Position numbers and translations under genes: made by a program. This document shows, piece after piece, positions 5,669-56,201 of a stretch of 64,000 bases of DNA. The stretch is from an uncultured Acidobacteriota bacterium. GTDB lineage: Bacteria > Acidobacteriota > UBA6911. The notes beneath the pieces are model-generated. The model ran no database searches. It saw only the letters and a program-made list of their open reading frames with translations, and was not told the origin of the DNA. The stretch covers positions 64,001 through 128,000 of the forward strand of contig CAWHCF010000050.1 in the NCBI GenBank assembly GCA_963827655.1, in the 5' to 3' direction. The first letter of the stretch is position 1, and every line of letters begins with the position of its first letter.

Positions 5669-7433
5669 TTGATGATCGTATTCCCGTTAATCTTGAGCGG
5701 CCTTCTCGCCGCCGCGCAGACGCCCTCCGATCGGCTCGAGGCGCGCCTGTCGGCTCATGCAATCTCCGGTGTCTTCCGCTCCGCGCTGGGGGTCACACGT
5801 CAGGGCACCAGGATTCCTTATCTTTTCACGGCGGAGGATCTGGACTACAACACGCGCCGGACGCGCGTGCTGCTCGTGGGCGGCCTTGACGGTTCGGATG
5901 CATCGGTCGATTCCGTGCTCGAGGCATTCCACTGGTTCCATACCTCGCCGGCAGCGGGGAAGTTCAGGACATCCTTTGCCGTGTCGGCCGTCCCGGTTGC
6001 AAACCCGGATGGTTGGTTGAGAGGCGGGCCGGGCAACGGCTCGGGCGGCGATCCGACACACGGTTATCCACCCCCAGGCGAAGCCTACAATAGTGCGACC
6101 GACCCCGAGGCCGCCTACCTTTGGAGATGGATCGGGATGCATGCCGCGGATTTCGTGGTGGAAGTTCGAAAGGGAAAGGACTACGGTTTCGCCCTTTCCG
6201 ACGACGAGGGACTCCGAGAACTTGCTCGCTTCCTCACTCCTGGCCGGACGCTACCGCCGTCGGACGAGCTGGTTCCGCAGCTTGCGCGCGCCGCACCAAG
6301 CGGCACGGGAACCGTGCCGGCCGTCCGGGTCGAACTTTCCGGGAAGACTTCTTTCCTGGATGCGCTTCTTTCCGCCCTGCGCCAGGCGAAGTTCACCGGA
6401 CCTTCTCCCGCGCGCCGCGAGATCCAGCGGCGCCTGGCGCGAACACCGCTCGAAACCGCGCGCCAGCTTGCCGCACCACTACGGCCATGAGCTCGAGGAT
6501 GCCGTGTATATTCCGGCAATGGCCGTGATCGGAAGGCTCCGTCTTGCCGACCTGACCGGCGACCCAGCGGTCCTTCAGGACGTCGAACGCATCGTGGAAC
6601 CTTATGTTGCCGGAAGGAAACCCGCGCTTCCGCCGCAGGTGAGCGGCAGTCACTTATCCGGCCACCTTCTCTTCGGCGAGCTAGCCCGGCGAACTGCGCG
6701 CCCCCGCTATCTCGAGCTGGCCCGAGCCGCAGCCGACCTCGGATTTGATCAACAGGGAAGACCTCGTGAATCGATGCCTTTCCATAACGAGATGAGTGAC
6801 GCGGTTTTCATGGGGGGCCCGATCCTGGCCCTTGTGGGCCGGCTTACGGGTGAGGCGCGTTACTTCGAGCAGTGCATCCGCCACCTGCGCTTCATGCTCG
6901 GGCTCGATCTACGGCCGGACGGACTCTGGCGGCACTCGCCCCTGGATCCGGCAGCCTGGGGACGAGGCAATGGCTTCCCGGCGCTTGGCCTGGCTTTGAG
7001 CTTGTCCGAGATACCACGCGACAATCCAGGGCGCGACGAGATCCTCAAGGTCTTCCGTTCCCACCTGAATGTTCTTCTCGCCCATCAGGACCCGACCGGC
7101 GCCTGGCACCAGGTGATCGATGCAACCGAAAGTTATCGTGAGCTGACCGCGACGTGCATGATCGGGGTGGCGATGCTGCGCGGGATTCGCTCGGGCTGGC
7201 TCGAGCGCGCCCGCTTCGAGCCGGCGGTTGAGCGCGCCTGGCATGCTGTCCAGACACGAGTAGCTCCTGACGGCACGCTCGTCGACGTTTGCACCGGTAC
7301 CGGAAAGCAGCGTAGCCTGCGCGATTATCTGGACCGCCCGGCGATCCTCGGCCGCGATCCCCGTGGCGGGGCGATGGCGCTTTTGTTTGCTGTCGAGATG
7401 GCGGAGTGGCAAGTCCAGCGCAAAAAGCGGTGA
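5669..7433 (+). CDS. Fusion of a degenerate M14 carboxypeptidase-like domain and a GH88/GH105 unsaturated glycuronyl hydrolase; frameshift near 6470-6480
   Basis: ORF 5669-6490 (signal peptide, NPDG, PEA) and ORF 6093-7433 (MSDAVFM, WGRGNG, WHQV, ELTATCM, DVCTGT) join by removing one base; the span is 3n+1. Confidence 0.72.
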
Positions 7434-7890: not shown

Positions 7891-10884
7891 ATGAACTGTA
7901 GGTTATCCCCCATTGCCTTAGTGGTGCTCCTGTGTCTAACCCGGGGCGAAGCCCTGAGTGAGGTCGTCGCTGCCAGGCAAAACGCCAAGGTCGGCGACCC
8001 TTACCGGTTCGACGTGTGGACCACCGACAACGGCCTGCCGCAAAACTCGGTGCTGGCGATCCTGCAGACTCGGGATGGCTATCTCTGGTTGGCAACTTCC
8101 GATGGTTTGGTCCGCTTCGACGGGGTGCGGTTCACCGTCTTCAACCGGAGTAATACGAAAGGGCTCAACAGCAACCGCTTCACCGCGCTCTTCGAAGACC
8201 GCCATGGCAACCTGTGGGCCGGGACGGATGATCGCGGGCTCATCCGGTACCGGGACGGGGTGTTTACTCCCTACACGACCGCAGACGGACTGCCGGATTA
8301 CTGGGTCTGGGCGATCCGTGAGGATCAAGACGGGCGACTCCTGGTGTTGACCCAGTATGGCATTGCCCAATGGCAGGGCGCCAGGTTCGGGCCCTTCACT
8401 CCGGCCGAGGGCCTGCCGAGGCACCCTTCTCAATGGGAGCAGCGATTTGCGGGCCTCTCTTTTTACGACGCGGCCGGGGTCCACCACTTCCAGGGGGCGG
8501 GCTACCGGACCTATACCATGAAGGATGGTCTGTCGAGCCTTGACATCTTGTCGATCTATGAAGACCGCCACGGCGCCCTCTGGGTTGATACCGCACGGGC
8601 AGGCCTGAACAGGTTGAAGGACGGCGTGGTTACCGTCTATCAGACTCAGGGCCAACTTAAGAATGCGAGGGCAGTCTGTGAAGACCACAGCGGCGGCTTG
8701 TGGATCGTCGCCGATGACGGCCTGAGCCGCCTGAAAGACGGCCAACTCACGTCGTACGGCGCGGCTGCCGGGCTCACCAGTAAAGGTGTGATCACCGTCT
8801 ATGTTGACCGGGAGGGGGTTGCATGGCTGGGCACTAAAAGTGACGGCCTCTACCGGGCACGGAGCGTGGCCGTCACCGCGTATTCCAGGCAAGACGGCCT
8901 CGCTGGAAACAATGTCTACGCTATTCACGAGGACCGCGCGGGCGCCATCTGGATTGGCACCTGGGATGGCGGCCTGAGCCGGTACAAGGACGGCGCTTTC
9001 TCCCATTACACCACGAAGGACGGGCTTTCCAGCGACTTGATCAACGCCCTCTACGAGGATCGTGAAGGGGCACTGTGGGTTGGTACTCACGACCAGGGGG
9101 TGAACCGGCTTGACAAAGGCCGCTTCACCACCTTTAACAAGCGCGACGGCCTTACGGATAACACCATTCTGGCTATCTACCAGGACCGCGCCGGGAACCT
9201 CTGGTTCGGCACGCCGAGCGGCCTGAACAGATATAAGGACGGGTCGTTCACCGTCTACTCGACCGCCGACGGTCTGGTCCACCGGAAGGTACAAGCCATC
9301 CACGAGGACCGCGCCGGCAACCTCTGGCTCGGCACGCTGGGCGGCCTCAGCCGCCTGCGCGACGGCAAGTTCACCTCCTATACGGAGCAAGACGGCCTCT
9401 CGAGTAATCACGTCCGGTCGATCTACGAGGACAGCGACGGCACGCTCTGGGTTGGCACTTATGACGGCGGTCTGAACCGGCTCAAGGACGGGAGGATTAC
9501 CGCCTACACCGTCAGGGAAGGCCTCTTCAACAACGGCGTCTTTCAGATCCTGGAAGACAACCGCGGAAACCTCTGGATGAGTTGCAACCAGGGCATCTAC
9601 CGGGTCAGCAAAAAAGAGTTGAATGATTTCGCCGCGGGGCGAACACGGTCCATCATCTCTGTAGCCTACGGCAAGAGCGACGGCATGCTCAACTCCGAGT
9701 GTAATGGCGGCCGCCAGCCGGCAGGGGTGAAGGCGCGGGATGGCCGGCTCTGGTTCCCCACTCAGGCGGGGGTGGCTGTGGTCGACCCCGAGGCGGCGTC
9801 GATGAGCACCCAGCCGCCACCCGTGGTGATCGAACAGTTCATCCTGGACAAGGAGCCGGTCGCGCTGGAACGCGAAGTGCGGATCCTCCCGCGCAAGGAG
9901 AATCTCGAGATTCATTACACCGGGCTGAGCCTGATCAGGCCGGAGCATATCAGGTTCAAATACAAGCTGGAGGGCCTGGACCACGATTGGGTCGAGGCCG
10001 GTCACCGTCGCACCGCCTATTACTCGCATGTCCCGCCGGGCCAGTACACCTTTACCGTGATCGCCGCCAACAGCGACGGCGTGTGGAACATCGAAGGGCC
10101 CCGCATTCCGATCGTGGTGGTCCCGCCCTTCTGGCACACCTGGTGGTTTCGCTCGCTGGCACTGGTGGGGCTGGCCGGCGTCGTGGTTCTGGCGCACCGG
10201 CGGCGAGTCGCGCAACTGAAGCGGGCTCATGCGGCGCAGGAGGCGTTCTCGCGGCAGTTGATCGAGTCGCAGGAGCGCGAGCGCCAAAGGATCGCGGCGG
10301 AACTGCACGACAGCCTGAGCCAGAGTATGGTCATCATCAAGAACCGGGCCGTGCTGAGCTTGAGCGCGCCCGACGATCACCAGCGGGCCTTCGAGCAGCT
10401 GGACGAAATCGCGGGAGCGGCCAGCCACGCCATCGACGAGGTGAAAGAGATCGCATACGCGTTGCGCCCTTACCACCTGGACCGGCTCGGCCTGACCAAG
10501 GCCATTGAAGCCATGCTCAAGAAGGTCTCTGACGCGAACGGGGTGAGCTTCTCGGCTGACATCGACCCGATCGACGGGCTCTTTCCTCCTGAAGCCGAGA
10601 TCAACCTCTATCGCATCCTGCAGGAGGGGGTCAACAACGTCGTCAAGCACGCCCAGGCCACGGAGGCGAAGGTGACGATCAAGAAGTCGGCGCACGGGGT
10701 GGATTTGACCATTCAGGATAACGGCCGCGGGTTCACGCCGGGCGTGCCGGCGAGTGCCGAGGCCGGCCGTGGCGGCTTCGGCCTGATCAGCATCGCGGAG
10801 CGCGCCCGCCTCCTCGGGGGGCAGCCGGTGATCCAGTCCGTGCCAGGGGCGGGCACGACGATTTCGGTCAGGCTTGGTTTCTAG
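7891..10884 (+). CDS. Sensor histidine kinase with Reg_prop beta-propeller, Y_Y_Y, HisKA_3 and HATPase domains
   Basis: Repeated GL.SN.V.AIYEDR.G.LW.GT units, Y_Y_Y region, TM helix, ERQRIAAELHDSLSQ, QEGVNNVVKHA, DNGRGF. Confidence 0.95.
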   Translation: MNCRLSPIALVVLLCLTRGEALSEVVAARQNAKVGDPYRFDVWTTDNGLPQNSVLAILQTRDGYLWLATSDGLVRFDGVRFTVFNRSNTKGLNSNRFTALFEDRHGNLWAGTDDRGLIRYRDGVFTPYTTADGLPDYWVWAIREDQDGRLLVLTQYGIAQWQGARFGPFTPAEGLPRHPSQWEQRFAGLSFYDAAGVHHFQGAGYRTYTMKDGLSSLDILSIYEDRHGALWVDTARAGLNRLKDGVVTVYQTQGQLKNARAVCEDHSGGLWIVADDGLSRLKDGQLTSYGAAAGLTSKGVITVYVDREGVAWLGTKSDGLYRARSVAVTAYSRQDGLAGNNVYAIHEDRAGAIWIGTWDGGLSRYKDGAFSHYTTKDGLSSDLINALYEDREGALWVGTHDQGVNRLDKGRFTTFNKRDGLTDNTILAIYQDRAGNLWFGTPSGLNRYKDGSFTVYSTADGLVHRKVQAIHEDRAGNLWLGTLGGLSRLRDGKFTSYTEQDGLSSNHVRSIYEDSDGTLWVGTYDGGLNRLKDGRITAYTVREGLFNNGVFQILEDNRGNLWMSCNQGIYRVSKKELNDFAAGRTRSIISVAYGKSDGMLNSECNGGRQPAGVKARDGRLWFPTQAGVAVVDPEAASMSTQPPPVVIEQFILDKEPVALEREVRILPRKENLEIHYTGLSLIRPEHIRFKYKLEGLDHDWVEAGHRRTAYYSHVPPGQYTFTVIAANSDGVWNIEGPRIPIVVVPPFWHTWWFRSLALVGLAGVVVLAHRRRVAQLKRAHAAQEAFSRQLIESQERERQRIAAELHDSLSQSMVIIKNRAVLSLSAPDDHQRAFEQLDEIAGAASHAIDEVKEIAYALRPYHLDRLGLTKAIEAMLKKVSDANGVSFSADIDPIDGLFPPEAEINLYRILQEGVNNVVKHAQATEAKVTIKKSAHGVDLTIQDNGRGFTPGVPASAEAGRGGFGLISIAERARLLGGQPVIQSVPGAGTTISVRLGF

Positions 10885-12821: not shown

Positions 12822-12841
12822 CAGTCATCAAATGAACAGGC

Positions 12842-12886
12842 TGCCCCGCCCCGGGTTTTGGCGCCGGTTATCCCGGGGCGGCATTT
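12842..12886 (+). terminator. Possible terminator hairpin
   Basis: GCCCCGGG...CCCGGGGC stem just after the 12821 stop; weak U-tract. Confidence 0.35.
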
Positions 12887-13171
12887 CGAAAGGGACTCAG
12901 GACCGCCGGCCGTAACTCGCGGCCGGCTGACCTGACGCAAGGGAAGAATCGCGCGAAGCCTGCCTTCCTGGAATTCTGATTACTGGACGCTTCACCGACT
13001 CCCATCTGCAGTAGCGAAGGTCCTCAAGAGCTTCCCAGCCTCTGAATTGGGCTTTTGTGCCAAGAATGCTGGACGATCGGTCAAGTATTCAAGGCCTTGC
13101 CAGCCGTCTATTAGGGTGGATCGCGACGAGCACGATCCAGAGACAGGTGAATCTAATTAAGGAGAAAACGC

Positions 13172-13266
13172 ATGCCGCTGTATATGGATACTCACCAGCA
13201 TATCGAAGGGCTAACCGCAGATGCCGTAGCCCACGCCCATGAAGCCGACCTGAAGACGCAGGAGAA
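13172..13266 (+). pseudogene. Truncated DUF4242 (SCO4226-like nickel-binding) gene
   Basis: Strong AAGGAG RBS. MPLYMDTHQHIEGLTADAVAHAHEADLKTQE matches the family N-terminus, then the sequence diverges (ORF stops at 13363). Confidence 0.65.
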
Positions 13267-13522
13267 TTGGCCGTCTGTTCAGAAAACCACATGGTTCTCC
13301 CAACCCAACGAGGATCGGCGAGGTCCGGAAACACGGATTCACCCTGCCGGCGGAGCTGGCTGACGCCTACGGAATCCCGACGGGAAGGATCGATCCGGGG
13401 CGTGGCGGCGCGGTTTGGGGAAAGAGAACCACGCCCATATCAGGGCGTGGGAATACAATCAGAATGCTTGCAGGATGACAGTATAATTCCGCTTGAAGCA
13501 AAGACTTCGGAAGGGGGCGACA

Positions 13523-15980
13523 GTGAATGAGGATCTTCGGCGTCTAGTGCACGACAGACTCAGTTCGAAAGGACTGTTGCAGAAGAATTGGAGCAGTCTT
13601 GTTCTCGCCGCGTGCGAGAGTCGTGAAGCGATCGACAATCTCCTCGATGACGCAAAAGCGGCGACGAAATCTGCCGCACCATCGGCACCACAAACACATA
13701 CCGGCGCCTATCTGACTTCTCTGACGGTTCAGGGCTTCCGAGGCATTGGACCGAAACAGACTCTATCATTTGCCACCGGTCCCGGCTTGACGATCGTCGT
13801 CGGTCGCAATGGATCCGGCAAATCGAGTTTTGCGGAGGCGTTGGAGGTGCTATTCACACGCGACAGCAAGCGGTGGTCCGAGCGACCGAAGATCTGGAAG
13901 GATGGCTGGCGCAATCTTCATCACTCGCATGCCGCCGCCGTCGAAGCAGAAGTGCACCTGGAAGGGCAGGGGTCCGCCAAAGTCACTTGTGCCTGGGATG
14001 ATGGCGCTCCATTCGAAGCGCAGAAGGTCACAGTGCAGCCGAAGGGGAAACCCAAAACCTCCATGGAGGCCCTTGGTTGGCAAAACGCCCTCACATCCTA
14101 CCGTCCCTTTCTCTCTTACAACGAGCTAGCCTCGATGCTGGACGAAGGACCGTCCAAGCTGTACGACGCCCTCTCGCTGGTGCTGGGCCTCGCGGATCTT
14201 GTTGATGCGCAAGCCGCTCTCGCGAAATGCCGCCTTGAACGCACAAAGGCTTACGACGTGGCCAATCGAGACCGGGAAGCGCTCGTGGAAGGCCTCAAAG
14301 CACTGCTGGAGCAGGAAGCCGATGACCGGGCGTCGGCCTGCCTCGATGCCCTGACATCCAAATCCGTGGGGACTCGACACGCTTGAGCGCAATGTTATGA
14401 CCGGTCCTGAGCCAACGGCGGATCAGGATATCGCCATCCTGATGCGCACCCTTTCTCTGGAGTCTCCCGATCCCGATCGCGTGATTGCAGCCGTCGCTGC
14501 GCTTCGTCTGGCTGACCAGAAGCTGAAGGCCGTGGCCGGCACCGACGCCGAAACCTCGCGCAAGCTCGCACTGCTGTTGGAGGCCTCGCTCGCGTTTCAC
14601 GCCGATCACGGAGACGGGGATTGTCCGGTGTGTGGAAGTGAAGGGCGGCTGACACAGACGTGGGCCAAGGCAGCGCGTGACCAGGTCACACGCCTTCGCA
14701 GCCTTGCTTCGGAGAGCGATCAAGCCCATCGATCCGCTCAAGATGCCACACGAACGGCGCGAGAATTGCTCGCCGCGCCACCAAAGTTCCTGACGCAATT
14801 AGTTGAAATCGGCCTCGCGGGACTGGACGTCGCTCGTGAACAATGGGATGCCTGGCATGCGGGTTCGTCCGGGAACGACCTGGCTGCTCTGGCTGCCCAT
14901 CTCGAAGGGCTTCATGAAGTCCTGGCGCGAGCAATCGAGGCGCTTAAGAGGTCAGCAGCCGCGGAACTGCGGCGCCGCGAGGATCGGTGGCGGCCCACTG
15001 CGACGGCAATTTCCGGATGGATCAAGACCGCTCGACTCGCGCGTGCCGGAGCCGAGCCTCTTCCCCGGATCAGGGCGGCTGAAGAGTGGCTGAAGGACGT
15101 CTCTGCGGATATTCGGAACGAACGCTTCGCGCCCATCGCGGACAAAGCCATGACCACCTGGGAACACCTTCGGCAGCACAGCAACGTGACCCTGGGACGA
15201 ATCGAGCTCGCGGGCGCCGGGAACCAGCGGCGGGTGACGCTCGACGTGACGGTCGAAGGTGTGCGAGGCGCGGCGCTTGGTGTGATGAGTCAGGGCGAGT
15301 TGCATTCGTTGGCGCTGAGCTTATTCCTCCCGAGAGCCACCTTGCCAGAGAGCCCTTTTCGTTTCGTGGTGATCGACGATCCGGTGCAGTCGATGGATCC
15401 GAGTCGTGTGGATGGTCTCGCCAGAGCGTTCGAGGAGACGGCGCGCACACGGCAGGTAATCGTCTTCACGCACGACGATCGACTGACTGAGGCCGTTCGA
15501 CGGTTGAGGATCAAGAGCACGATCCTCAGCGTCACTCGCCGGCCGAAGTCCGTAGTTGAAGTCAGACCCGCTCTTGATCCCGTCCAGGCTCACATCGAAG
15601 ATGCGCTGGCTTTAGTTCACACGACCGAACTGCCGCCTAAAATCTTGTGCATGGTCGTGCCAGGGTATTGTCGGGCCGCACTCGAAGCGTCGTTCATCAC
15701 CGTAGTCCGTCGGCGACGGCTGGCTCAGGGTGGCCTCCATGCCGAAGTCGAGGAAGAACTGACGCGGGCGGGAAAACTGACGCCGCTTGCCGCGCTGGCG
15801 CTGTTCGACGACAAGGACAAAGGCGGTGACGTGATGAGACGGCTGAAGCAGTTTGGTTCGTGGGCGGCCGATGTCTTCCAGAACGTGAAGGAAGCTGTAC
15901 ACGAAGGTACGCCAGACGATGTAAAGCAGATGATCCGGAATACAGAGAAACTCACGGCGAAGATACTGGAACTCGGGTGA
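13523..15980 (+). CDS. Rad50/SMC-like ABC ATPase with zinc hook and C-terminal HEPN-like extension; frameshift near 14365
   Basis: QGFRGIG, Walker A GRNGSGKSS, coiled coils around CPVC, signature MSQGE, Walker B IDDPVQSMD, H-loop FTHD. ORFs 13493-14386 and 14397-15980 join with one extra base (KS-WGLDTLE). Confidence 0.85.
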
Positions 15981-16348
15981 ACGTCGACCATTCTGATTTG
16001 GTGAGGGCTGCGCGAGATCTGGTCGAGCGCGCCGATCCCATGACGGCAGGAATCTGGCCGCGCGCGACAGCGTTTCTCGCGAGGCAAGCCCTGGAAGCAG
16101 CCCTGGACGAACTCTGGCGCCGCCGCGCTCCGGGCATGGAGGAATGCTCCGCGCGTGCGCAGCTGCTCTGTCTCCCGTCGTATCTTCATCACGGCGATGA
16201 AGCGCTTGCCGAGCGAGTGTCATACGCGTGGGCTGGACTCAGCCGAGCCTGTCACCAGCATGCCTATGAATTGCCTCCGACATCGTCCGAGTTGCTCGGT
16301 TGGATTGCGACCGTCGAACAACTGATTGCGCGCGTCACGGCCGCGTGA
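15977..16348 (+). CDS. Small HEPN-like protein (123 aa), coupled to the ATPase
   Basis: GTGA start/stop overlap at 15977-15980; AFLARQALEAAL N-terminal helix and RACHQH (Rx4H) motif. Confidence 0.65.
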   Translation: MNVDHSDLVRAARDLVERADPMTAGIWPRATAFLARQALEAALDELWRRRAPGMEECSARAQLLCLPSYLHHGDEALAERVSYAWAGLSRACHQHAYELPPTSSELLGWIATVEQLIARVTAA

Positions 16349-39516: not shown

Positions 39517-39632
39517 GTCTTTGTCTTTCCTCTTTGGATAAGATAGCACCTGTTTAAAAGTAAGGCAATGAGCTCAGGTAAGACACTTCTGAAAAATAGC
39601 CACCCCTTCGACCCACCGGCGTCTGCCTTCTC

Positions 39633-40479
39633 CTACTGCTTTACCGCCGGGAGCGACTGGCCGCGCATGTCCGACCACAGGTCGCCGACGTCGGCGATGC
39701 GGCCGGCCATCGTCCGCAGCGTGAATGTCCGGGGGCCGACCTCGCCGCGTTCGAGCTCCTCCCACGTGCACGGCGCGGACACGGGCGCGCCGGGCTTCGC
39801 CCGCACGGCGTAGGGCGCGGCGAACGTCGCGCTGTAGCCGTTGCGTCCGGTGTCGACCAGGATGCGGCCGCCGCGATCGGCCTTGCTGAACTCCTGGGTG
39901 AGGTGCTGCGGATCGCGCTTGACCAGGATCGTACCGACGGCGTGTGCGAACCTCGAGACCTCGCCGAAGCCGGCCTTGCCGTCGAGCGGGACGACGATGT
40001 GGAACCCCTTGGAGCCCGATGTCTTCACCCAGCTGGTCAGAGCCAAGCTCATTCAGGAGGTCGCGAAGCCCGAGCGCTGCCGCGCGCAGGACGTCCGGCT
40101 CATCTTCGGACGGGTCGAGGTCGAAGACGCAGATGTCGGGCTGGTACAGGTTCGGCGCGCGGGACGTCCACACGTGCGGCGTGATGCTGTTCTGGTTGGC
40201 CAGCCAGAGCAGCGATCGCGTGTCGCAGACGAGTGGATGGTGCACCGTCCCGCCTTTCTTCGGAACCTCGACGCGCTCCAGCCACTCGGGAAAACCTTTC
40301 GAAACGTCCTTCTGCATGAAGCCCTGCTCGCCGATGCCGGCCGGGTAGCGCTCCATCGTGACCGGACGCGCGCGGATGTGCGGCAGCATGATCGGCGCGA
40401 TCGCTTCGTAGTAGGAGGCGAGCTCGCCCTTGGTGATCCCGTCGTCCGGGAACAGCACCTTCTCGGGGTGCGTGATCAC
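39633..40479 (-). CDS. LigD-type primase-polymerase domain protein; frameshift near 40045
   Basis: ITHPEKVLFP, RYP.G, FDLDP in one frame; KTSGSKGFHI and AKPGAPVSAP in the next; GTGA overlap with the ligase. Confidence 0.85.
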
Positions 40480-41354
40480 GCCATCTCCCTCACGACCTCG
40501 CGTGCCGACTTGTCGGTGCGGACGCCGAGCAGCCGGGGATGGCGCAGCTTGCCGTGCACCGTCCATTCGATGAAGGCGACCTGCACGACGATCTCGGGAC
40601 GCACCCAGTGCGCGCGCAGGCGCGGCAGCCCGACGGCCTTGGTGAACGGCGGCGTCGCGATCTCGAGCGTATCCAGCCGCGCGCGGAGGTCCAGCAGCAG
40701 CTTCGTGTCGAAGCCCGTGCCGACCTTCCCGGCGAAGACGAAGTCGTCGTGGTCGAAGTAGCCGACGAGCAGCGCGCCCAGGCCGACCCGTCCGCCCTGC
40801 GGATCGGTGAACCCGCCGACCACGAGCTCCTGCGTCGCCTCGCACTTCATCTTCAGCCAGTGCGGCGAGCGGCGGTGCTCGTAGGGCGAGTCGCGCCGCT
40901 TCGCGATGACGCCCTCCCAGCCCTCGCTGCACGCGCGCTCCCACGGTTTGGCATCTTCGAGTGAAGCCACGCGCTGCAGCGGCGACCGAAGGGGCAACTG
41001 GCTCAAAAGCGCGCGCCGGGCATCGAGCGGCAGCGACGTCACGTCGCGGCCGTCGAGCCAGAGGATGTCGAACACGTGGTAGGCGGTCTCACCCTGCTTG
41101 CCCCACACGCCGGTGGCCTCGCCATCGAGGATCACGTCGTGCACCGGAAGGTTCGCGATGGCCTCGACGACGGAAGGGTAGGACCCGTTCTGCGGCAGCC
41201 GGTTGCGCGACAGGAGGCGGACATCGAGTCCATGTTTGAACGCGAGCAGGCGGATGCCGTCGAGCTTGCGCTCGAAGATCCACTCCGGCCCGGTGAACCG
41301 CTCCTGGGTGAGGGTCGCGGCCATCGGCTCGACCCATTCGGGAAACGCTAACAT
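40476..41354 (-). CDS. ATP-dependent DNA ligase (LigD/LigC ligase domain)
   Basis: EPMAA, ERKLDGIR (KxDG), LDGE, EGVIAK, WLKMK, VGTGF, LRHP. Confidence 0.92.
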   Translation of the reverse strand: MLAFPEWVEPMAATLTQERFTGPEWIFERKLDGIRLLAFKHGLDVRLLSRNRLPQNGSYPSVVEAIANLPVHDVILDGEATGVWGKQGETAYHVFDILWLDGRDVTSLPLDARRALLSQLPLRSPLQRVASLEDAKPWERACSEGWEGVIAKRRDSPYEHRRSPHWLKMKCEATQELVVGGFTDPQGGRVGLGALLVGYFDHDDFVFAGKVGTGFDTKLLLDLRARLDTLEIATPPFTKAVGLPRLRAHWVRPEIVVQVAFIEWTVHGKLRHPRLLGVRTDKSAREVVREMA

Positions 41355-41494: not shown

Positions 41495-42943
41495 TTACGC
41501 GAGGATCTCGCGCACTACACGCGCCGGAAACTCGTCGGTGACTCGCTCGTGCCGTCCGTCTCGCTCGAAGAACAGGTCCCGGTGATTCAAGCCTGCCAGG
41601 TGGAGGATGGTCGCGTGGAAATCGTGCACGCTGACTCGATTTTCCACCGCCTTGTAGCCGATCTCATCCGTAGCCCCGTACACCGTGCCTCCTTTAACGC
41701 CGCCGCCGGCGAACCAGACGGTGAATCCGGAGGGTCCGTGGTCACGGCCTGCGCTGGCCCCCGGAGACTGCGCGATGGGCAGCCGGCCGAACTCACCACC
41801 CCACACCACCAGCGTGCTATCCAGGAGGCCGCGCTGTTTCAGATCAGACAGCAAGGCGCCGATCGGCTTGTCGGTTTTGCCGCAGGAATATTGAAGGTCT
41901 TTGACTATGTTGAAGTGGTTGTCCCAGATCTGCGTCTCGATGTAAATCTGCACCAGCCGCACGCCTCTTTCCACCAGCCTCCGGGCCATCAAGCATCTTT
42001 TCCCATAGGAAGCCGTCAGCTCATTATTCAGCCCATACATCTCGCGGGTGGCTTCGCTTTCTTTGGAGATGTCGAGCGCGTCGGTAGCTGCCAGTTGCAT
42101 GCGGGCAGCCAGTTCGTAAGATGCGATCCGCGCATCCAGGTCGGGCTGGTTCGGCCGCTGGGCGCGATGCGCCGCATCCATGCGGTGCAGCAGGTTGCGC
42201 GTCAGCTCTACCACCGGGCTCGGCGGCGGTTCCGACGGCTGCAGGTTCAACAGCGGCGCCCCTTCGGACCGGACCCGCGTGCCCTGAAAGACACCGGGCA
42301 GATAACCCGCCTGCCAGCTCTGGATGCCGTTGATCGGAAGTCCCTTGGGATCGTCCAGCACGACATAGGCAGGCAGATCCTGACTCTCGCTTCCGAGTCC
42401 GTAAACGATCCAGGCGCCCAGCGAAGGCCGGCCGGGCAGCATGCGGCCCGAGTGAATAATAAACAGCGCGGCCTCGTGCGCCAGGTGGGTCGTGTACATG
42501 GAACGGATGATCGCCATGTCGTCCACGTGCCGGGCGATGTGCGGCAGAAGTTCGGAAACTTCGATGCCCGCCTGGCCGTGCCTGGCAAACTTGAACGGAG
42601 AAGGCATCAGCCCGCCCGCCTCGCGGACGGCCCGGACCTCGCTCGTCAGATCGCGGCTCGGCGGCTGGCCGGCATGCTTTTCGAGCGCCGGCTTATGGTC
42701 GAACAGATCCACCTGGCTTGGTCCGCCGTTCATGAAAAGCTGGATCACCGCCTTCGCTCGCGCCGGGTGATGCGCGGGCTTGGGCTTGAGATCGTGGATC
42801 CGGGGCGCTGCTGCGGCAAGGCCGGGATCCGCGTGAACCAGATCCTTGCCGAGAAGGCACGCGAGCGCGGTCCCATGAAGCCCGTCGACAATCGAGGAAA
42901 AGAATCCGCGTCGTGTGGTTCTCAGGACAGCGTCAGTCGACAT
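41495..42943 (-). CDS. DUF1501 domain protein (Tat signal)
   Basis: TRRGFF, LFMNGGPSQVDLFD.KP, SYELAARMQ, RRLVERGVR, GEFGR, GRDH. Confidence 0.92.
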   Translation of the reverse strand: MSTDAVLRTTRRGFFSSIVDGLHGTALACLLGKDLVHADPGLAAAAPRIHDLKPKPAHHPARAKAVIQLFMNGGPSQVDLFDHKPALEKHAGQPPSRDLTSEVRAVREAGGLMPSPFKFARHGQAGIEVSELLPHIARHVDDMAIIRSMYTTHLAHEAALFIIHSGRMLPGRPSLGAWIVYGLGSESQDLPAYVVLDDPKGLPINGIQSWQAGYLPGVFQGTRVRSEGAPLLNLQPSEPPPSPVVELTRNLLHRMDAAHRAQRPNQPDLDARIASYELAARMQLAATDALDISKESEATREMYGLNNELTASYGKRCLMARRLVERGVRLVQIYIETQIWDNHFNIVKDLQYSCGKTDKPIGALLSDLKQRGLLDSTLVVWGGEFGRLPIAQSPGASAGRDHGPSGFTVWFAGGGVKGGTVYGATDEIGYKAVENRVSVHDFHATILHLAGLNHRDLFFERDGRHERVTDEFPARVVREILA

Positions 42944-45872
42944 AGAGAAACTCCGCCGAGTTCAAGACAGTGTGGCAGAAACCAGCCATCGCGAGCCACC
43001 GGGCTCGGTACGAGGCCGGCTCGGCCGGCTTCTCGGCCTGGAGCTTGTGCTCCCAGGCCTCCCGCAAGCCCTTGATGGCGGTGATAGCGGCGGCCGCCTC
43101 GACGTCCGAGGGCCGGCGTGAAAGCGCCGCCAGGTACACGCGCTCTACCTGCCGGGCCAGATCCTCACCGCCGGCATCGATGACACGGCCGGCCATGTAT
43201 TGCGCGCTCTTCACGGCCAGGTCGCTGTTCATCAGTTGCAGCGCCTGCAGAGTAACCGTGGACTGACCGCGCTTGATGCAGTTCGGGTTCAGCAATGGAG
43301 CATCGTACACTTCCAGCACCGTGACGGGGCTGGAACGCCGCTGCAGGAGGTAGATGGCCCGGCGGTAGCCTTGCGCGGTCGGCACGCCAAACACTTCGCC
43401 ATCGCCCTTGCGATCGATCTCAGCCGGAGGGCCGAACGGAGTTTCGTCGAGCCGGCCGGTCACCTTCAGCAGGGAGTCATGTACGGCCTCGGCATCGAGC
43501 CGGCGGAACGGAAACCGCGACAGCAGCCGGTTGTCGGCGTCTGCCGCATGCCGGGTTTCGTCGTACCGCGAACTTTGCCGGTAAGCGTTTGACGTCATGA
43601 TCAGGCGGTGAAGGTATTTCATGCTCCAGCCCTGGCGTACAAACTCGGTCGCCAGCCAATCCAGTAACTCGGGATGCGTCGGCGCCAGACCCGCCTTGCC
43701 GAAGTTTGCCGCGCTGGCCACGAGGCCGGTTCCGAAGTGATACTGCCAGACCCGGTTCACCAGCACCCGCGTCGTCAACGGATGATTCGGCTGCGTCAAC
43801 CAGCGCGCAAAGGCGAGGCGCCGGCCGCTCGTGCCACTCTGGTGCGCGGGCTTCTCGACTTTGTAGGCGGGCAGCGCCGCACTGAGCACGGAGGGCGGCC
43901 CGGGCTCGACCAGCGCGCCCGGATTGTTGACATCGCCGCGCAGCAGGATCCGGTTCGGAGTCGGTTCCCCGCCCATGTCGAAAAGCGCTCGAATCCTGGG
44001 AGCCGGCCGCAGCTTGGCTCTCTCGGCGGCGATCTTCGGTTGGATCTGCCGCGCCAATTCACGGTAGTCGTCGAAGCGATTCAATTCCTGGCCCGAAACC
44101 TCGAGCGCCGTCTTGAACTTTTCCACCAGGTACTTCTGCAGCTCGGTCCGCTTTTCCGCCGGAGTGTCGGCCGCTTGCTGTAGATCCTTTCGAACCTCCG
44201 CCGGCAGTTTCTCGAGCTTCTCCGCTCGAAGCTTCAGGCGCAGCGGCGCCGCCTTCGCGTCCAGCGTCTTCTGGAGTTCTTCGATCCGCTGGTTTATGGG
44301 CGCGTTGTGGATCTCGTTCTGACGCTCTTCTTCCGGTGCATGGTAGGCGACGTCCCGGATATCGTCGTCGCCACACTTGGCGCCGACGCCCAGGCATCTG
44401 TTCGGCACCCGCCAGTCGTACGGATCGTACGCCGTCTGGAGAATGGCGCTCAGGCGATAGTAATCGCGCTGGGGAACCGGGTCATACTTGTGATCGTGGC
44501 ACTGGGCGCACGCGATAGAGAGGCCGAGCACGGCCGTCCCGAGAGTCTCCATCTCGCCGGCGACCGTGTCGTGCCGGTCCGCCAGAAAATTCTGCTCCGT
44601 GCTGTAAGTGGAGTCCGGAGCCATGCGCAGGAAACCGGTCGCCACCAGTTTCTCGGCTTGTTCCGGCGTGTATTGCTTGGTCGCCTTATAGTCAAACATT
44701 TCATCGCCTGCAATCTGCTCGGTCAGGAACTGATCGTATGGCTTGTCGCTATTGAGAGCGCGGATGACGTAGTCGCGATAGCGCCACGCATGCGGGCGGA
44801 TCGTGTCGGCCGAAACCGCGCCTTCCGAATCGGCGTAGCCGGCCGCGTCCAGCCAGTACTTCGCCCATCGTTCTCCGTGCCGCGGCGATTCCAGCAACCG
44901 GTCGATCATTTTCTCGTAGGCGTTGGGGCTTCGGTCCGCTTCATAGGACTCGATCTCTTCGGGCGCAGGAGGCATACCGATCAGGTCGATGTAGGCGCGC
45001 CGCATCAACACCAGCGGATTGGCCGGTTTCGAGAACGTCATGCCCTTTTGTTCCAGTTGCGCGAGAAGGAAGGCGTCCAGCGGGTTCCGCACGAGGGTCG
45101 CCGCGCGCACAGAAGGGACGGCCGGCCGCGCCGGAGGCCGGAAAGCCCAGTGCTGCCGGTCCTGGGCGCTCACCAGCGGATCCGAGTCAGGGCGCACCTC
45201 GATCGGCTTTTCGTTATCCGGGGGCGCGCCGGCCGCAATCCATGTCTTCAATTTGGCAAATTCATCATCGGTCACTCCACGAACCGAGTACTGCTCCTGG
45301 AGCTCCGCCGGCGGCATCTGCTGCCCGCCGATTTTCTTCACGATCAGGCTTTCATCCGGTTTTCCCGGAACCATCGCCGGTCCCGACTTCCCGCCGCGCA
45401 GCAGGCTTTCGCGGGTGCGCAGATCGAGGCCGGCCTGTTGCGTGCGCCGGCCGTGGCACACGAAGCACTTCGCGCCCAGGATCGAGGAGAACACGTCGCG
45501 CTCGGACACGAGCCGGGCAGCTTCTCGCTCTCCTTGTTTCAAGGCGCCCGCGTCGATCCAGCGCCGGAGCAGGGCAATCTCCTGCTCATCCAGTTTCGCC
45601 CCGCCCATCGGCATCTTGCCGGAATTGACCAGAGTGAGCAGGATGCTCTCGGCGGGCCTCCCTGGCACGACGGCAGCACCCGTCTTGCCGCCGCGCAACA
45701 CGTCGTCGCGGGTTTCGAGCGAAAGGCCGCCCTGCCGAGTGCCGGCGCTGTGGCAAGCAAGGCACCTGGTTTTGAGGAGCGGAAGAATGTGAGATTCGAA
45801 ATGCAATGGCGAATCGGCCGAGAGCAATTGCCAGCCCAGCAGCATGAGCCACGTGGTGGGGATGGAGATCAT
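42933..45872 (-). CDS. PSD1 and planctomycete cytochrome c domain protein (DUF1549/DUF1553), two N-terminal cytochrome domains
   Basis: [47 protein letters not shown]. Confidence 0.92.
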   Translation of the reverse strand: MISIPTTWLMLLGWQLLSADSPLHFESHILPLLKTRCLACHSAGTRQGGLSLETRDDVLRGGKTGAAVVPGRPAESILLTLVNSGKMPMGGAKLDEQEIALLRRWIDAGALKQGEREAARLVSERDVFSSILGAKCFVCHGRRTQQAGLDLRTRESLLRGGKSGPAMVPGKPDESLIVKKIGGQQMPPAELQEQYSVRGVTDDEFAKLKTWIAAGAPPDNEKPIEVRPDSDPLVSAQDRQHWAFRPPARPAVPSVRAATLVRNPLDAFLLAQLEQKGMTFSKPANPLVLMRRAYIDLIGMPPAPEEIESYEADRSPNAYEKMIDRLLESPRHGERWAKYWLDAAGYADSEGAVSADTIRPHAWRYRDYVIRALNSDKPYDQFLTEQIAGDEMFDYKATKQYTPEQAEKLVATGFLRMAPDSTYSTEQNFLADRHDTVAGEMETLGTAVLGLSIACAQCHDHKYDPVPQRDYYRLSAILQTAYDPYDWRVPNRCLGVGAKCGDDDIRDVAYHAPEEERQNEIHNAPINQRIEELQKTLDAKAAPLRLKLRAEKLEKLPAEVRKDLQQAADTPAEKRTELQKYLVEKFKTALEVSGQELNRFDDYRELARQIQPKIAAERAKLRPAPRIRALFDMGGEPTPNRILLRGDVNNPGALVEPGPPSVLSAALPAYKVEKPAHQSGTSGRRLAFARWLTQPNHPLTTRVLVNRVWQYHFGTGLVASAANFGKAGLAPTHPELLDWLATEFVRQGWSMKYLHRLIMTSNAYRQSSRYDETRHAADADNRLLSRFPFRRLDAEAVHDSLLKVTGRLDETPFGPPAEIDRKGDGEVFGVPTAQGYRRAIYLLQRRSSPVTVLEVYDAPLLNPNCIKRGQSTVTLQALQLMNSDLAVKSAQYMAGRVIDAGGEDLARQVERVYLAALSRRPSDVEAAAAITAIKGLREAWEHKLQAEKPAEPASYRARWLAMAGFCHTVLNSAEFLYVD

Positions 45873-51549: not shown

Positions 51550-53040
<1,491 letters not shown>

Positions 53041-53091: not shown

Positions 53092-55620
53092 TCAGTCCAC
53101 ATAGAGAAATTCATTCAGGTTGAGCATCGCGTGACAGAAGTCGCGCAGTGCGGCCGCCTCCGGATGTTCGTGCCGGCGTTGAGTGTAGCGGTCGCCTTGA
53201 TTTTTCAGGAACTTCAGCGCCCAGTCAACCTCCTTGGGACTGGCCGGCCGGCTCAAAGCATGCTTGAACGCGCGTGTGATCTGCGCGCGCCGGTCGGCCC
53301 CTGCTTCCAGCTCGATGCGCCGGGCGAAATGGTTGGCCTGCTCCAGAGTCGATTCATTGTTGAGCATAGCGAGTGCCTGGGGCGCGACGGTTGAAACGCT
53401 GCGTGTTGGAGACGAAACCGTCGTGGCAGGGCAATCAAAGACTTCGATCAGCGGCAGGAGGACCGAACGCTTGACGAAAATGTAAACGCTGCGCCGCCAC
53501 TCTTTCGGCCCTTCTGTAACGTCGAGGGGCCATCTGGGCCGGGATCCGGTTGCGATTACCGATGAATCGATGCGCGGGTAAATCCCCGGACCACCCATTT
53601 GCAAATTGAGCTTCCCGCTCACGGCCAGGATGCTGTCGCGCAGGGTTTCGGCTTCCACCCGGCGCGGATTCATGCGCCAGAATAGCCGGTTCTCGTGATC
53701 CCGCGACGCGGCTTTCGGATCGAAGCGGCTTGACTGCCGGTAAGTGTTCGAGGTGAGGATCAGCCGATGCATCGCTTTCCAGCTCCAGCCCCGCGCGGTG
53801 AACTCGACCGCGAGCCAGTCCAGCAGCTCCGGGTGGCTTGGGCGATCACCCGTCGCTCCAAAGTCGCTCGGGGTGCGCACGAGGCCTTTGCCGAAATGGT
53901 ACTGCCAGATCCGATTCACGGCCACTCGGGGCGTCAGTGGATTAGCGGAGCTTGCGATCCAATCGGCCAGCTGTTTGCGCCGGTCCTCCAATGAGATGTC
54001 CGCTTCGCCGGCCAGGACCGCCGGGAAACCGGGACCCACGGCTTCGTCCTTTTGAGTAATGTCCCCGCGTAGCAATAGAAATGCCTGTTCCGGCTTCGCC
54101 TTGTCGGTGATCCCCATCGCAGCAGGAAGCGGCTGCGGCCGTGTCTGGTTGATCTTTCTGATTTCCTCCTGCAGCTCTTTGCGCGCTTTCTTCTCTTCGG
54201 GCGAAAGCAGCGCCTCGATCTCTTCGTCCTGAAGTTTGACGTCTTTGGCAAACCGCGTGGCAGTCGCCTGGCGGAACTGCTCCCGGTCAATCTGGCTCAG
54301 GGCTCCGCTTGATTCTGCCAGGCGAACGTGAAACTTCACTTTCTCGGCCAGGAGGTGTTCGCGATGCGGACCTTCGATGACGGCGATTTTCTCCCTGAAC
54401 GGCTTGACCAGTTCATCGAGCTCATTGTTGCGCGCTTTGAAGGCAGCCGCCTCGGATGCGCTCACGAGAAGGCGATCGGTTTTCTCGAAAGGGAAGAAGA
54501 TCGCCTGCATGCGATAGTAGTCCTTCTGCGGGATCGGGTCGTATTTGTGATCGTGACAGCGGGCGCACCCGACCGTCAGACCGAGAAAGACAGATGAGGT
54601 CGTGGTCACCATATCATCGAGTTCATCCGCGCGGGTCTGTTCGTTGGTGGCATTGTCGACGGTCGGCCCGTTGCGGCAGAAACCGGTCGCGATCAAAGCC
54701 GCAGGATCTGCGGGATTGAGCTGATCACCAGCCAATTGCTCGCGAATGAAACGATCGTAGGGCTTGTCTTCGTTGAACGACTGGATCACATAATCGCGGT
54801 AGCGCCACGCGTGCGGGCGATCGTAGTCGAATTCGTATCCGCCGCTGTCGGCATAACGGGCCAGGTCGAGCCAGTGGCGGCCCCAACGTTCACCGTAGCG
54901 GGGCGAGGCGAGAAGCCGATCAATGATCTTTCCGTAGGCCGCGTCGGATGGGTCGGCCAGGAATTGGTCCAGGTCTTCAGGCGAAGGCGGCAGCCCAATC
55001 AGATCCAGATAAATCCGGCGCAGCAATACCTGAGGTTCCGCAGGGGGCGCGAAGGCCAGGCCGTTGGCCTCGAGTCGCAGCAGAATAAAAGCGTCGATTT
55101 CATTCCGCACCGACGAACGGTTCTTGACCGCCGGAACTGCCGGGCGCACCGGCCTCTGGAATGACCAGAATTGCCTGTCGGTGCCGGTGATCGGAGAACC
55201 AGGTTGGCGTACCGGCATGGTCGTTTCTGATGCAGCGGCCAAATCCCTGGGCAGGCTTTCGATCCAGCGCGCGATTTCAGCCGTATCCGAATCGGGCAGT
55301 CTGGCCATCCCCATCGGCATGGCGGGTTCTTCCTGGTGAGTGATCAGCCGGTACAACAGGCTTCGGTCAAGATTGCCGGGGACAACCGCAGGCCCTCTTG
55401 CTCCGCCGCGCAGGATGGTAGGTTCACTACGCAGATCAAGACCGGAACGTTGGACAGAACCGCCGTGGCACATGACGCATTTCTGCTCGAGGATCGGCGC
55501 GACCCGCTTGAAGAGCTCCGCCGGACGTTCCGATTGCTGGGCCGCCAGGACGCAGGTTACCCCGAGAATAAGGATGGCGAGCGTCTTGCTGGCGCATTGT
55601 GCGAGGCTGGGTGTTCTCAT
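53092..55620 (-). CDS. PSD1 and planctomycete cytochrome c domain protein (DUF1549/DUF1553)
   Basis: [42 protein letters not shown]; start placed at MRTPS (signal peptide follows). Confidence 0.9.
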
Positions 55621-56201
55621 CCGAAAAGCCGGCCCTCTGAAAGGCTGGATTATCTTAGCTGAATTTGACCCTGCTCTCAAAAGGTTCGTTGCTTTTTCAG
55701 CGGCATTCTTGATGTTCTTCGTGTCAGGGTGACTGGAGCGTTTGCACCCACACCGAGTTTCCATTAGACGTTCCCGTCGCTGCGTAACTAAGAATGCCTC
55801 TGCCGTTTTTTGGGAAGCAAACCTCCGCGATTCAGACAACGGTAGTCAATAGCTCGCTCGTGAGGGCGTGCACTGAAAAATCTCGTAGTCCGAGGTCCGA
55901 ATGTCCGGCAGTGTCCGGCCGTTAGGCCGGGATGGCGAAGCAAGCGTAGCAGGCTATTGCTTATCCGGTTGTTTCACCTATCTGGCCATCGCCATCTTGC
56001 TAAATAGTGATGGCGAACAGCAAGCACCTCAGGAGTCCGGGGTCGAGCAGCTTCACTCTTCCGGCGGGCCTGAGCGGCGCTTTCGATCACACACCCCTCG
56101 AAGTCGGTGTCCTTGCTGTCAGTTGGCGATCCAGTGTACCTTTTCTTTGTAACACGCTTGTTTTATGAATCAGAAACCGGAAGTGGGAAGGAATGGGCTA
56201 A

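Follow-up and report, generated by a model that had tools for sequence, protein, structure and literature searches.

PrrC and RloC have nuclease domains that are classed as diverged HEPN domains fused to ATP-binding cassette (ABC) ATPases (PMC3710099). The family motif given for RloC is Arg-X3-Glu-X36-52-His, often with a Ser preceding the His; the triad is R320/E324/H356 in PrrC and R692/E696/H737 in Geobacillus RloC, and changing any one of the three residues to Ala abolishes nuclease activity and toxicity (PMC2610378). We describe a gene pair with a similar pattern that lies in a 64,000-nucleotide stretch of DNA (the window; positions 64,001 to 128,000 of contig CAWHCF010000050.1, assembly GCA_963827655.1) from an uncultured Acidobacteriota bacterium. 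The pair consists of a gene for an 818-residue Rad50/SMC-type ABC ATPase, encoded at 13523-15980 on the forward strand with its frame broken once, and a small partner gene immediately downstream. An invariant Arg-x3-Glu...His is found both in the C-terminal domain of the ATPase (the tail) and in the small protein; in sequence it matches the pattern reported for the anticodon nuclease of RloC and PrrC. On our best reading, the pair would be an ABC-ATPase/RloC-type RNase system in a two-subunit form that has not previously been named.

Like RloC, the ATPase is about 800 residues long and has an ABC head with Walker A, signature, Walker B and switch His motifs. It also shares with RloC a helical insert with a CxxC hook and, at a wider Glu-to-His spacing, the C-terminal Arg-x3-Glu...His pattern (PMC2610378). 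RloC is often encoded apart from restriction-modification (R-M) genes and is sometimes linked to restriction; the pair has a GmrSD gene upstream in six of 80 loci. In contrast to RloC, which is described as a single polypeptide, this ATPase needs, or at least invariably comes with, a distinct small protein that bears the triad a second time (74 of the 80 loci). PrrC, too, joins an ABC ATPase to a nuclease domain at the C terminus, which bears the Arg320-Glu324-His356 triad (PMC2610378). However, PrrC has no coiled-coil or hook insert and sits inside a type I R-M locus, and the PADLOC model of PrrC matched the ATPase of the pair only with an E value of 0.06, over the Walker B region. PADLOC gave no match named RloC for the C-terminal piece of the window ATPase and none among the top 25 matches listed for the others.

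An earlier note on this DNA had recognized no named system in the pair, and Pfam, PADLOC and NCBIfam likewise matched it to no named system. We found no description of the pair in the literature searched; supplements lay outside that search, and a prior mention is possible. Krishnan et al. 2020 is said to be a classification of ABC ATPases and may cover the pair.

A conserved, translationally coupled gene pair

The ATPase gene and the small gene form a conserved, translationally coupled two-gene module that is inherited as a unit. We scanned 185,579 genomes, one per species, obtained at least 579 confirmed ATPase matches and kept the best 80 loci. Using a hidden Markov model (HMM) of the small protein, we found the small gene directly 3' of the ATPase gene and on the same strand in 74 of these 80 loci. 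Five of the six loci without it are contig ends (L008, L017, L028, L032, L072), and in the sixth (L004) the ATPase is frameshifted in the tail. The start of the small gene overlaps the ATPase stop in 64 of the 74 loci, as NTGA in 50, as TGATG in 4 and by 8-17 nucleotides in 10; nine of the non-overlapping loci have gaps of 5-23 nucleotides and one (L045) has a gap of 709 nucleotides. These counts bear out what the earlier note had claimed from the window copy, a stand-alone small gene tightly coupled to the ATPase, and extend it to a conserved pair.

The two proteins also co-diverge. Among 67 loci in which both are complete, their pairwise distances were correlated with a Mantel r of 0.885, and none of 999 permutations gave a value as high. 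There was no third conserved gene in an all-against-all clustering of open reading frames (ORFs) from 81 loci, in which the next cluster was present in 16 of the 81. Database searches returned more than 4380 relatives of the ATPase piece and, for the small protein, 1364 or more clusters at 50% identity (E <= 0.001); nearly all small-protein relatives were 107-229 residues long, among the 150 matches listed.

We rejected two kinds of apparent variant. The fused forms of the small protein, P0391 (from a search for long relatives) and P0383 (485 residues), are not real fusions but read-throughs out of a frameshifted ATPase tail, and the tail-less ATPases P0084, P0093, P0100, P0104 and P0112 are frameshifted. 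The frameshifts in these proteins, and one at L004:5894-6385, lie in or just before the tail domain. They may reflect recurrent inactivation of a toxic domain or assembly errors in metagenome-assembled genomes (MAGs), and their count is biased by the way matches were selected. Locus L045 (Vicinamibacterales), the sole one of the 74 in which the two genes lie far apart, has a 238-residue ORF between them (8490-9206, forward strand) with ATGA start/stop overlaps at both ends, a hydrophobic signal-like N terminus and no Pfam match.

Motifs of the ATPase and the two candidate triads

The ATPase appears to belong to the CxxC-hook branch of Rad50/SbcC/LmuB/RloC-like proteins, with arms that would meet at a putative CPxC zinc hook and a presumably helical C-terminal domain of 145 residues. 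We scored motif conservation in 25 homologues that are 50-76% identical to P0001, an intact homologue of 818 residues. Walker A (G94-S102), the signature (M588-E592), D618, D619 and the switch His (H650) were invariant in all 25, as were the hook residues C367, P368 and C370. Thus the Walker A and B, MSQGE and CPVC motifs that the earlier note had picked out are present in the window copy and invariant among these homologues.

Family models place the ATPase near Rad50 and SMC proteins. SMC_N (Pfam) was matched above its cut-off of 40 bits by five of five full-length homologues (51-63 bits), and homologues also matched AAA_23, AAA_21 and AAA_15; the 5' part of the window ATPase matched AAA_23, SMC_N and AAA_15. 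The closest solved sequences to a profile of the 25 homologues were Rad50 and SMC heads (best E value 1.3e-8), and an NCBIfam scan of the ATPase gave nothing close to cut-off. In PADLOC, the ATPase homologues gave moderate matches (E values of about 1e-20) to mad3, LmuB and PDC-S06 models. The LmuB model PDLC03859 matched P0001 with an E value of 2.5e-21 and P0113 with an E value of 1.3e-20, in the latter case near full length (model positions 19-593 of 611), and the mad3 and PDC-S06 models scored similarly.

About 340 residues separate the two lobes of the ATPase, and the hook sits near the middle of this insert. By a crude script, Pro and Gly make up 7-8% of the arm regions versus 11-17% of the heads, and a heptad score, equally crude, is slightly raised in the arm regions. 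The long insert that the earlier note had taken for long coiled coils stood up; the coiled-coil arms themselves we infer from the length of the insert, the match of P0113 to LmuB and the low Pro and Gly content.

PDC-S06, a single-gene candidate in PADLOC with models of about 780-860 positions, is similar in length to the ATPase. Residues 12-160 of the ATPase match model positions 24-164, covering the N-terminal extension and the N-lobe, and the C-lobe matches model positions 600-713 of 858, after which a model tail of about 145 positions remains. The likeness (E values of 1e-8 to 5e-20, in a comparison by model matches alone) is confined to the ATPase head, and the model tail is unmatched. 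The term 'PDC-S06' does not occur in the main text of a PADLOC paper.

A plasmid ATPase considered as a bridge to named RloC proteins was rejected, as PADLOC names it only LmuB-like or PDC-S06-like. This different hook ATPase (799 residues, CPFC; L082:3784-6391, forward strand, Aliiroseovarius plasmid NZ_CP080785.1) has a tail in which R-x3-E is followed after 65 residues by S-H, and a CxxC at the C terminus. An overlapping gene of 71 residues lies ahead of it, and Tn7-like tniQ/tniB/transposase genes adjoin it.

The putative triad of the tail is strictly conserved. R, E and H of R717-x3-E721...H793 were each present in 143 of 143 tails, with 70-76 residues from Glu to His, and Ala or Ser preceded the triad His in the sequences displayed. 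In the small protein, of about 125 residues, R36 was found in 194 of 195 sequences and E40 and H93 in all 195, with 46-53 residues from Arg-x3-Glu to His; the corresponding spacing in RloC is 36-52. The CRAALE...NVKEAVH tail of the earlier note is present and its R, E and H are those of the triad, but the note had called the tail degenerate. It is not degenerate, as none of the 143 tails departs from the triad. The tail seems to be the main candidate for the catalytic domain, and a second complete triad is present in the small protein.

The Rx4H motif in RACHQH, on which the earlier note had based a HEPN assignment, did not hold up. It is present in the small protein of the window, but of 195 sequences 109 have R90 and 153 have H95, so Rx4H is not a family feature. 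A Pfam scan of 49 tails and 49 small proteins found no consistent family. No PADLOC model matched the small protein or the tail (scanned within the C-terminal ATPase piece), no NCBIfam model matched the small protein, and PDB sequence searches with profiles of the small protein and the tail returned chance-level matches only.

Profile comparisons are suggestive of distant paralogy between the tail and the small protein, in line with the earlier note, which had read both as HEPN-like. Comparison with hhalign gave P values of 0.0017-0.0019 over 113-117 collinear columns, near end-to-end and with R-x3-E aligned, whereas with six control segments, taken elsewhere in these ATPases, P was 0.059-0.58 over 1-24 columns. 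A second tail alignment, made from closer database homologues only, gave a P value of 0.038 over 109 columns. The small-protein HMM reached up to 20 bits on the 143 tails (best E value 3.7e-6), and on 94 full-length ATPases its best domain fell in the tail in 86.

Proposed function and rival explanations

We suggest, tentatively and with somewhat less than even confidence, that the pair is a widespread, horizontally mobile module that specifies an RloC-like two-subunit RNase system for anti-phage defense, and that the window copy was disabled by a single-base frameshift or contains a sequencing error. We read the pair as a mobile, accessory, defense-type module because of its variable neighborhoods, the defense and mobile genes among its neighbors, its plasmid copies and its patchy spread. 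By analogy with RloC and Lamassu, the ATPase would act as a dimer that surveys DNA and keeps the nuclease in check. When foreign or broken DNA meets the heads, a change in head or hook engagement would release the nuclease. The tail and the small protein would pair, as HEPN-type RNase domains dimerize, to give a metal-independent RNase with two triads, and its target would probably be tRNA or another RNA of translation. The outcome would be abortive infection or growth arrest, and the population would be protected. Lamassu senses DNA ends (PMC12663957).

A more specific version is possible and in our judgment doubtful: the pair would belong to an unnamed family of immune modules, abundant in soil phyla (Acidobacteriota, Actinomycetota including Streptomyces, Dormibacterota, Chloroflexota), in which the RNase active site is divided between the C terminus of a Rad50-type zinc-hook DNA sensor and a small paralogous subunit that the sensor recruits. 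We hold the same reserve about a further element of it, that the ATPase cycle gates how such a split, heteromeric nuclease of the RloC type assembles or is arranged. In Cas13, Csm6 and dimers of RnlA, two HEPN-type domains form one RNase active site. The two domains that build this site may be identical or not (PMC3710099), and in this respect the proposed arrangement resembles them. In contrast to these proteins, the two domains of the pair would be on separate polypeptides, with one domain tethered to an SMC-type ATPase, and the tail and the small protein both lack Rx4-6H.

Several observations weigh against an RloC-like RNase system for defense. The HEPN-like label would rest on a three-residue pattern and a weak profile similarity. 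There is no Arg four to six residues before the invariant His of either protein (H93 in the small protein, H120 in the tail), and, against the family call of the earlier note, none of the 49 tails and none of the 49 small proteins matched a HEPN model of Pfam at E <= 1. The Glu-to-His spacing of the tail (70-76) falls outside the range published for RloC (36-52). AAA_13 (PF13166), which we take to be the Pfam family of RloC and PrrC, was below its cut-off of 36 bits in five of five full-length homologues (15.8-31.3 bits), which sets the ATPase apart from RloC, and its match was limited to model positions of about 366-578 of 713, in the signature/Walker B region. In the hhalign comparison of the tail with the small protein, the probability was 14-16% and the invariant His residues were three columns apart. 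The small-protein HMM gave a median of 1.2 bits and a maximum of 15.6 on the tails of full-length ATPases, versus a maximum of 2.5 outside the tail. The rate of defense neighbors (19 of 80 loci, see below) has no matched background control, and no copy of the pair was found on phage records. Finally, the window copy lies among metabolic and transport genes and not in a defense island, and it is frameshifted and may be non-functional.

It is conceivable, and unlikely, that the pair works like a toxin-antitoxin system in which the tail is the only nuclease and the small protein is a paralogue-derived decoy inhibitor at the dimer interface of the tail, released or degraded on infection in the way that RnlB acts on the HEPN RNase RnlA. 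Tight translational coupling would fix the stoichiometry of such partners, the small protein looks like a distant paralogue of the tail, and there is precedent in the HEPN RNases RnlA and LsoA, which are described as held inactive by the small partner RnlB (PMC3710099). The several homologues with frameshifted tails fit a toxic tail and could equally be assembly errors. A pure inhibitor, however, needs no enzyme-like invariant R, E and H, and these are found in 194-195 of 195 small proteins. In addition, family-model scans of the small protein found no instability signal and no antitoxin-type DNA-binding domain.

The pair is also like Lamassu in having a hook/SMC-like ATPase of the LmuB type (PADLOC LmuB, about 1e-20) that would work with a small partner. 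We consider it improbable that the pair is a Lamassu-like derivative, with the ATPase as an LmuB-type DNA-end sensor and the small protein as a structural adaptor or specificity factor. The small protein would then be analogous to LmuC, or to the C-terminal helical bundle of an effector-less LmuA, and would bind the coiled-coil apex or the heads; any effector activity would not be that of an RNase. The matches to PDLC03859 (E values of 1e-20 to 2.5e-21, near full length in P0113) fit such a derivative. LmuB variants with CxxC hooks, small LmuC partners, C-terminal bundles of five to six helices in LmuA and a clade whose effector domain was lost are all reported (PMC12663957). The absence of a linked LmuA gene leads us to conclude that the pair is not Lamassu: no LmuA-type effector gene was conserved near the pair in 81 loci, and it is the C terminus of the ATPase that bears the candidate effector domain, as a fusion. 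The small protein matches no Lamassu model, nor any other model in PADLOC, and the gene order differs, since the small gene follows the ATPase gene whereas LmuC precedes LmuB (PMC12663957). A Lamassu-like derivative would also give no account of why R-x3-E...H is invariant in tail and small protein alike. A housekeeping or stress DNA-repair ATPase of the SbcC/RecN/RecF type with a small accessory subunit and no immune role seems very improbable to us. It would account for the similarity to SMC_N and Rad50, for the automatic Gene Ontology term for double-strand break repair on a RefSeq plasmid copy, and for the ordinary chromosomal context of the window. However, a nuclease partner is not linked to the pair, which is therefore not SbcCD; there was no Mre11/SbcD-type Pfam match among 124 scanned neighbor proteins of the 80 loci. 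A patchy spread (at least 579 matches in 185,579 species genomes), variable neighborhoods that often contain defense or mobile genes, the plasmid copies, and repeated frameshifts atypical of core repair genes also argue against a role in repair.

If the reading of the pair as an RloC-like two-subunit RNase system is correct, the family would be large, with at least 579 genomic loci and no fewer than 1364 small-protein clusters at 50% identity. It would extend the theme of defense by ABC ATPase plus RNase, known from PrrC and RloC, to a two-subunit form, and it would offer a tractable system for an old question, how an SMC/Rad50-type ATPase relays what it senses on DNA to an effector. The family occurs mainly in phyla with few tested defense systems (Acidobacteriota, Dormibacterota) and is also found in Streptomyces, where a recurrent operon of GmrSD, ATPase and small gene parallels the linkage of PrrC with type I R-M. 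Were the RNase reading wrong, the two genes would still be a well-defined conserved pair.

Genomic context and the copy in the window

The pair is patchily spread over six phyla. As labelled, the 80 best loci comprise about 35 from Actinomycetota (including Streptomyces, Nocardia, Blastococcus and Frankia), about 19 from Acidobacteriota, 15 from Dormibacterota, 5 from Chloroflexota and 3 from Gemmatimonadota. Three further loci are from a Polyangiaceae MAG (Myxococcota), a MAG labelled 'bacterium' and a MAG labelled Enterobacterales, the last a doubtful label given its G+C content of 72%. Plasmid records hold three full-length copies, and on the Streptomyces plasmid pM92 the pair is annotated as 'AAA family ATPase' and 'hypothetical protein'.

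Association of the pair with defense genes is a reasonable but uncontrolled conclusion from its neighbors. Twenty-one of 124 immediate-neighbor proteins, in 19 of the 80 loci, matched PADLOC models at E <= 1e-15, and one of these matches (L005) is to a UvrA-like protein and is a probable false positive. The neighbors include PglZ and a HEC-04-like ATPase (L023), BrxHI/SngC helicases (L074, L077), a type IIG R-M enzyme (L027), a Mokosh-like protein (L038) and a Tiamat-like protein (L054). Further neighbor domains identified by Pfam are HNH, PIN, HepT/MNT, Phd, Schlafen-type and transposase domains. The earlier note had proposed a check for enrichment in defense islands: PADLOC-type neighbors occur as described, with no matched background for their rate, and the window itself is no island.

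A GmrSD type IV restriction gene lies directly upstream of the pair, on the same strand, in five Streptomyces loci (L058, L061, L066, L068, L070) and one Blastococcus locus (L064), at about 3.6-6.0 kb of each locus. The GmrSD ORF stops a few bases before the ATPase ORF. The arrangement looks like a three-gene operon and recalls the linkage of PrrC with R-M genes. The ATPase model is matched only from about position 53-58 onward in the five loci from Streptomyces, and most of the N-terminal extension is thus apparently missing; in L064 the match starts at position 4.

The ATPase gene of the window is spread over two reading frames (Table 1). The frame is lost after codon 281, and we place one surplus base near 14366 because the window has TCC G TGG GGA where P0001 reads SKS-WGLDTLE. 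With X at base 14366, the gene reads through for 818 residues with zero further stops. The product is 91.4% identical to P0001 over 818 columns, in agreement with the ATPase of about 818 residues that the earlier note had obtained by repairing one indel, and the C-terminal piece is 91% identical to P0001. The MNEDLRR start of P0001 agrees with the GTG start at 13523. A single unbroken ATPase ORF is present in 78 of 80 related loci; therefore the break in the window is a recent inactivating mutation or an assembly error, and it is evidently not a split-gene architecture. The overlapping 123-residue gene with RACHQH, also reported in the earlier note, is present as well.

Table 1. Features of the gene pair in the window
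Feature	Position	Strand	Remarks
ATPase 5' ORF	GTG 13523 to 14386	+	N-terminal part, with Walker A GRNGSGKSS
ATPase 5' part, residues 1-281	13523..14365	+	N-terminal extension of 62 residues, conserved, plus the ABC head's N-lobe
Walker A GRNGSGKSS	13802-13828	+	Within the ATPase 5' part
Frameshift, single surplus base	14366	+	TCC G TGG GGA versus SKS-WGLDTLE in the intact homologue
ATPase middle and C-lobe, residues 282-675	14367..15548	+	Helical arms, hook, signature, Walker B
ATPase 3' ORF, next frame	14397 to 15980	+	CPVC, MSQGE, FVVIDDP, switch His, tail of about 145 residues
CPVC hook motif	14622-14633	+	ATPase middle part
Signature MSQGE	15285-15299	+	ATPase C-lobe
Walker B FVVIDDP	15363-15383	+	ATPase C-lobe
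Switch His	15471-15473	+	ATPase C-lobe
ATPase C-terminal tail domain, residues about 676-818 and stop	15549..15980	+	Invariant Arg-x3-Glu...His triad
Tail R717 (CRAALE)	15672-15674	+	Triad residue
Tail E721 (CRAALE)	15684-15686	+	Triad residue
Tail H793 (NVKEAVH)	15900-15902	+	Triad residue
Small partner gene, 123 residues	15977..16348	+	GTG start overlaps ATPase stop (GTGA)
Small protein R36 (ARQALE)	16082-16084	+	Triad residue
Small protein E40 (ARQALE)	16094-16096	+	Triad residue
Small protein H93 (RACHQH, with H95)	16253-16255	+	Triad residue

At 13482-13487, upstream of the ATPase gene, there is a perfect TATAAT, and the GTG at 13523 follows a run rich in purines that resembles a Shine-Dalgarno sequence. 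A scan for consensus promoters and terminators around the operon was uninformative, and it called no promoter near this TATAAT. There was no ORF with a Pfam match in the 700 bases 5' of the ATPase gene (12822-13522).

The immediate neighbors of the pair in the window are a gene for an NHL-repeat protein and a gene for a TonB-dependent receptor. No Mre11/SbcD, kleisin or R-M gene adjoins the pair, just as the earlier note had it. Farther out are genes for a histidine kinase and a response regulator, TonB-dependent receptors, hydrolases and transporters, and no tRNA genes were found in the window. Other genes have no apparent link to the pair: a LigD primase-polymerase domain protein (39574-40944, reverse strand), an SNF2-family helicase (56507-58714, reverse strand), DUF1549/DUF1553 cytochrome-like genes (42933-45872 and 53092-55839, reverse strand) and a DUF1501 gene (51550-53040, reverse strand). 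Two forward-strand ORFs in different frames, 5669-6490 and 6093-7433, overlap by about 400 nucleotides; only 6093-7433 has a Pfam match (GH88), and 5669-6490 may be spurious or mark another frameshift.

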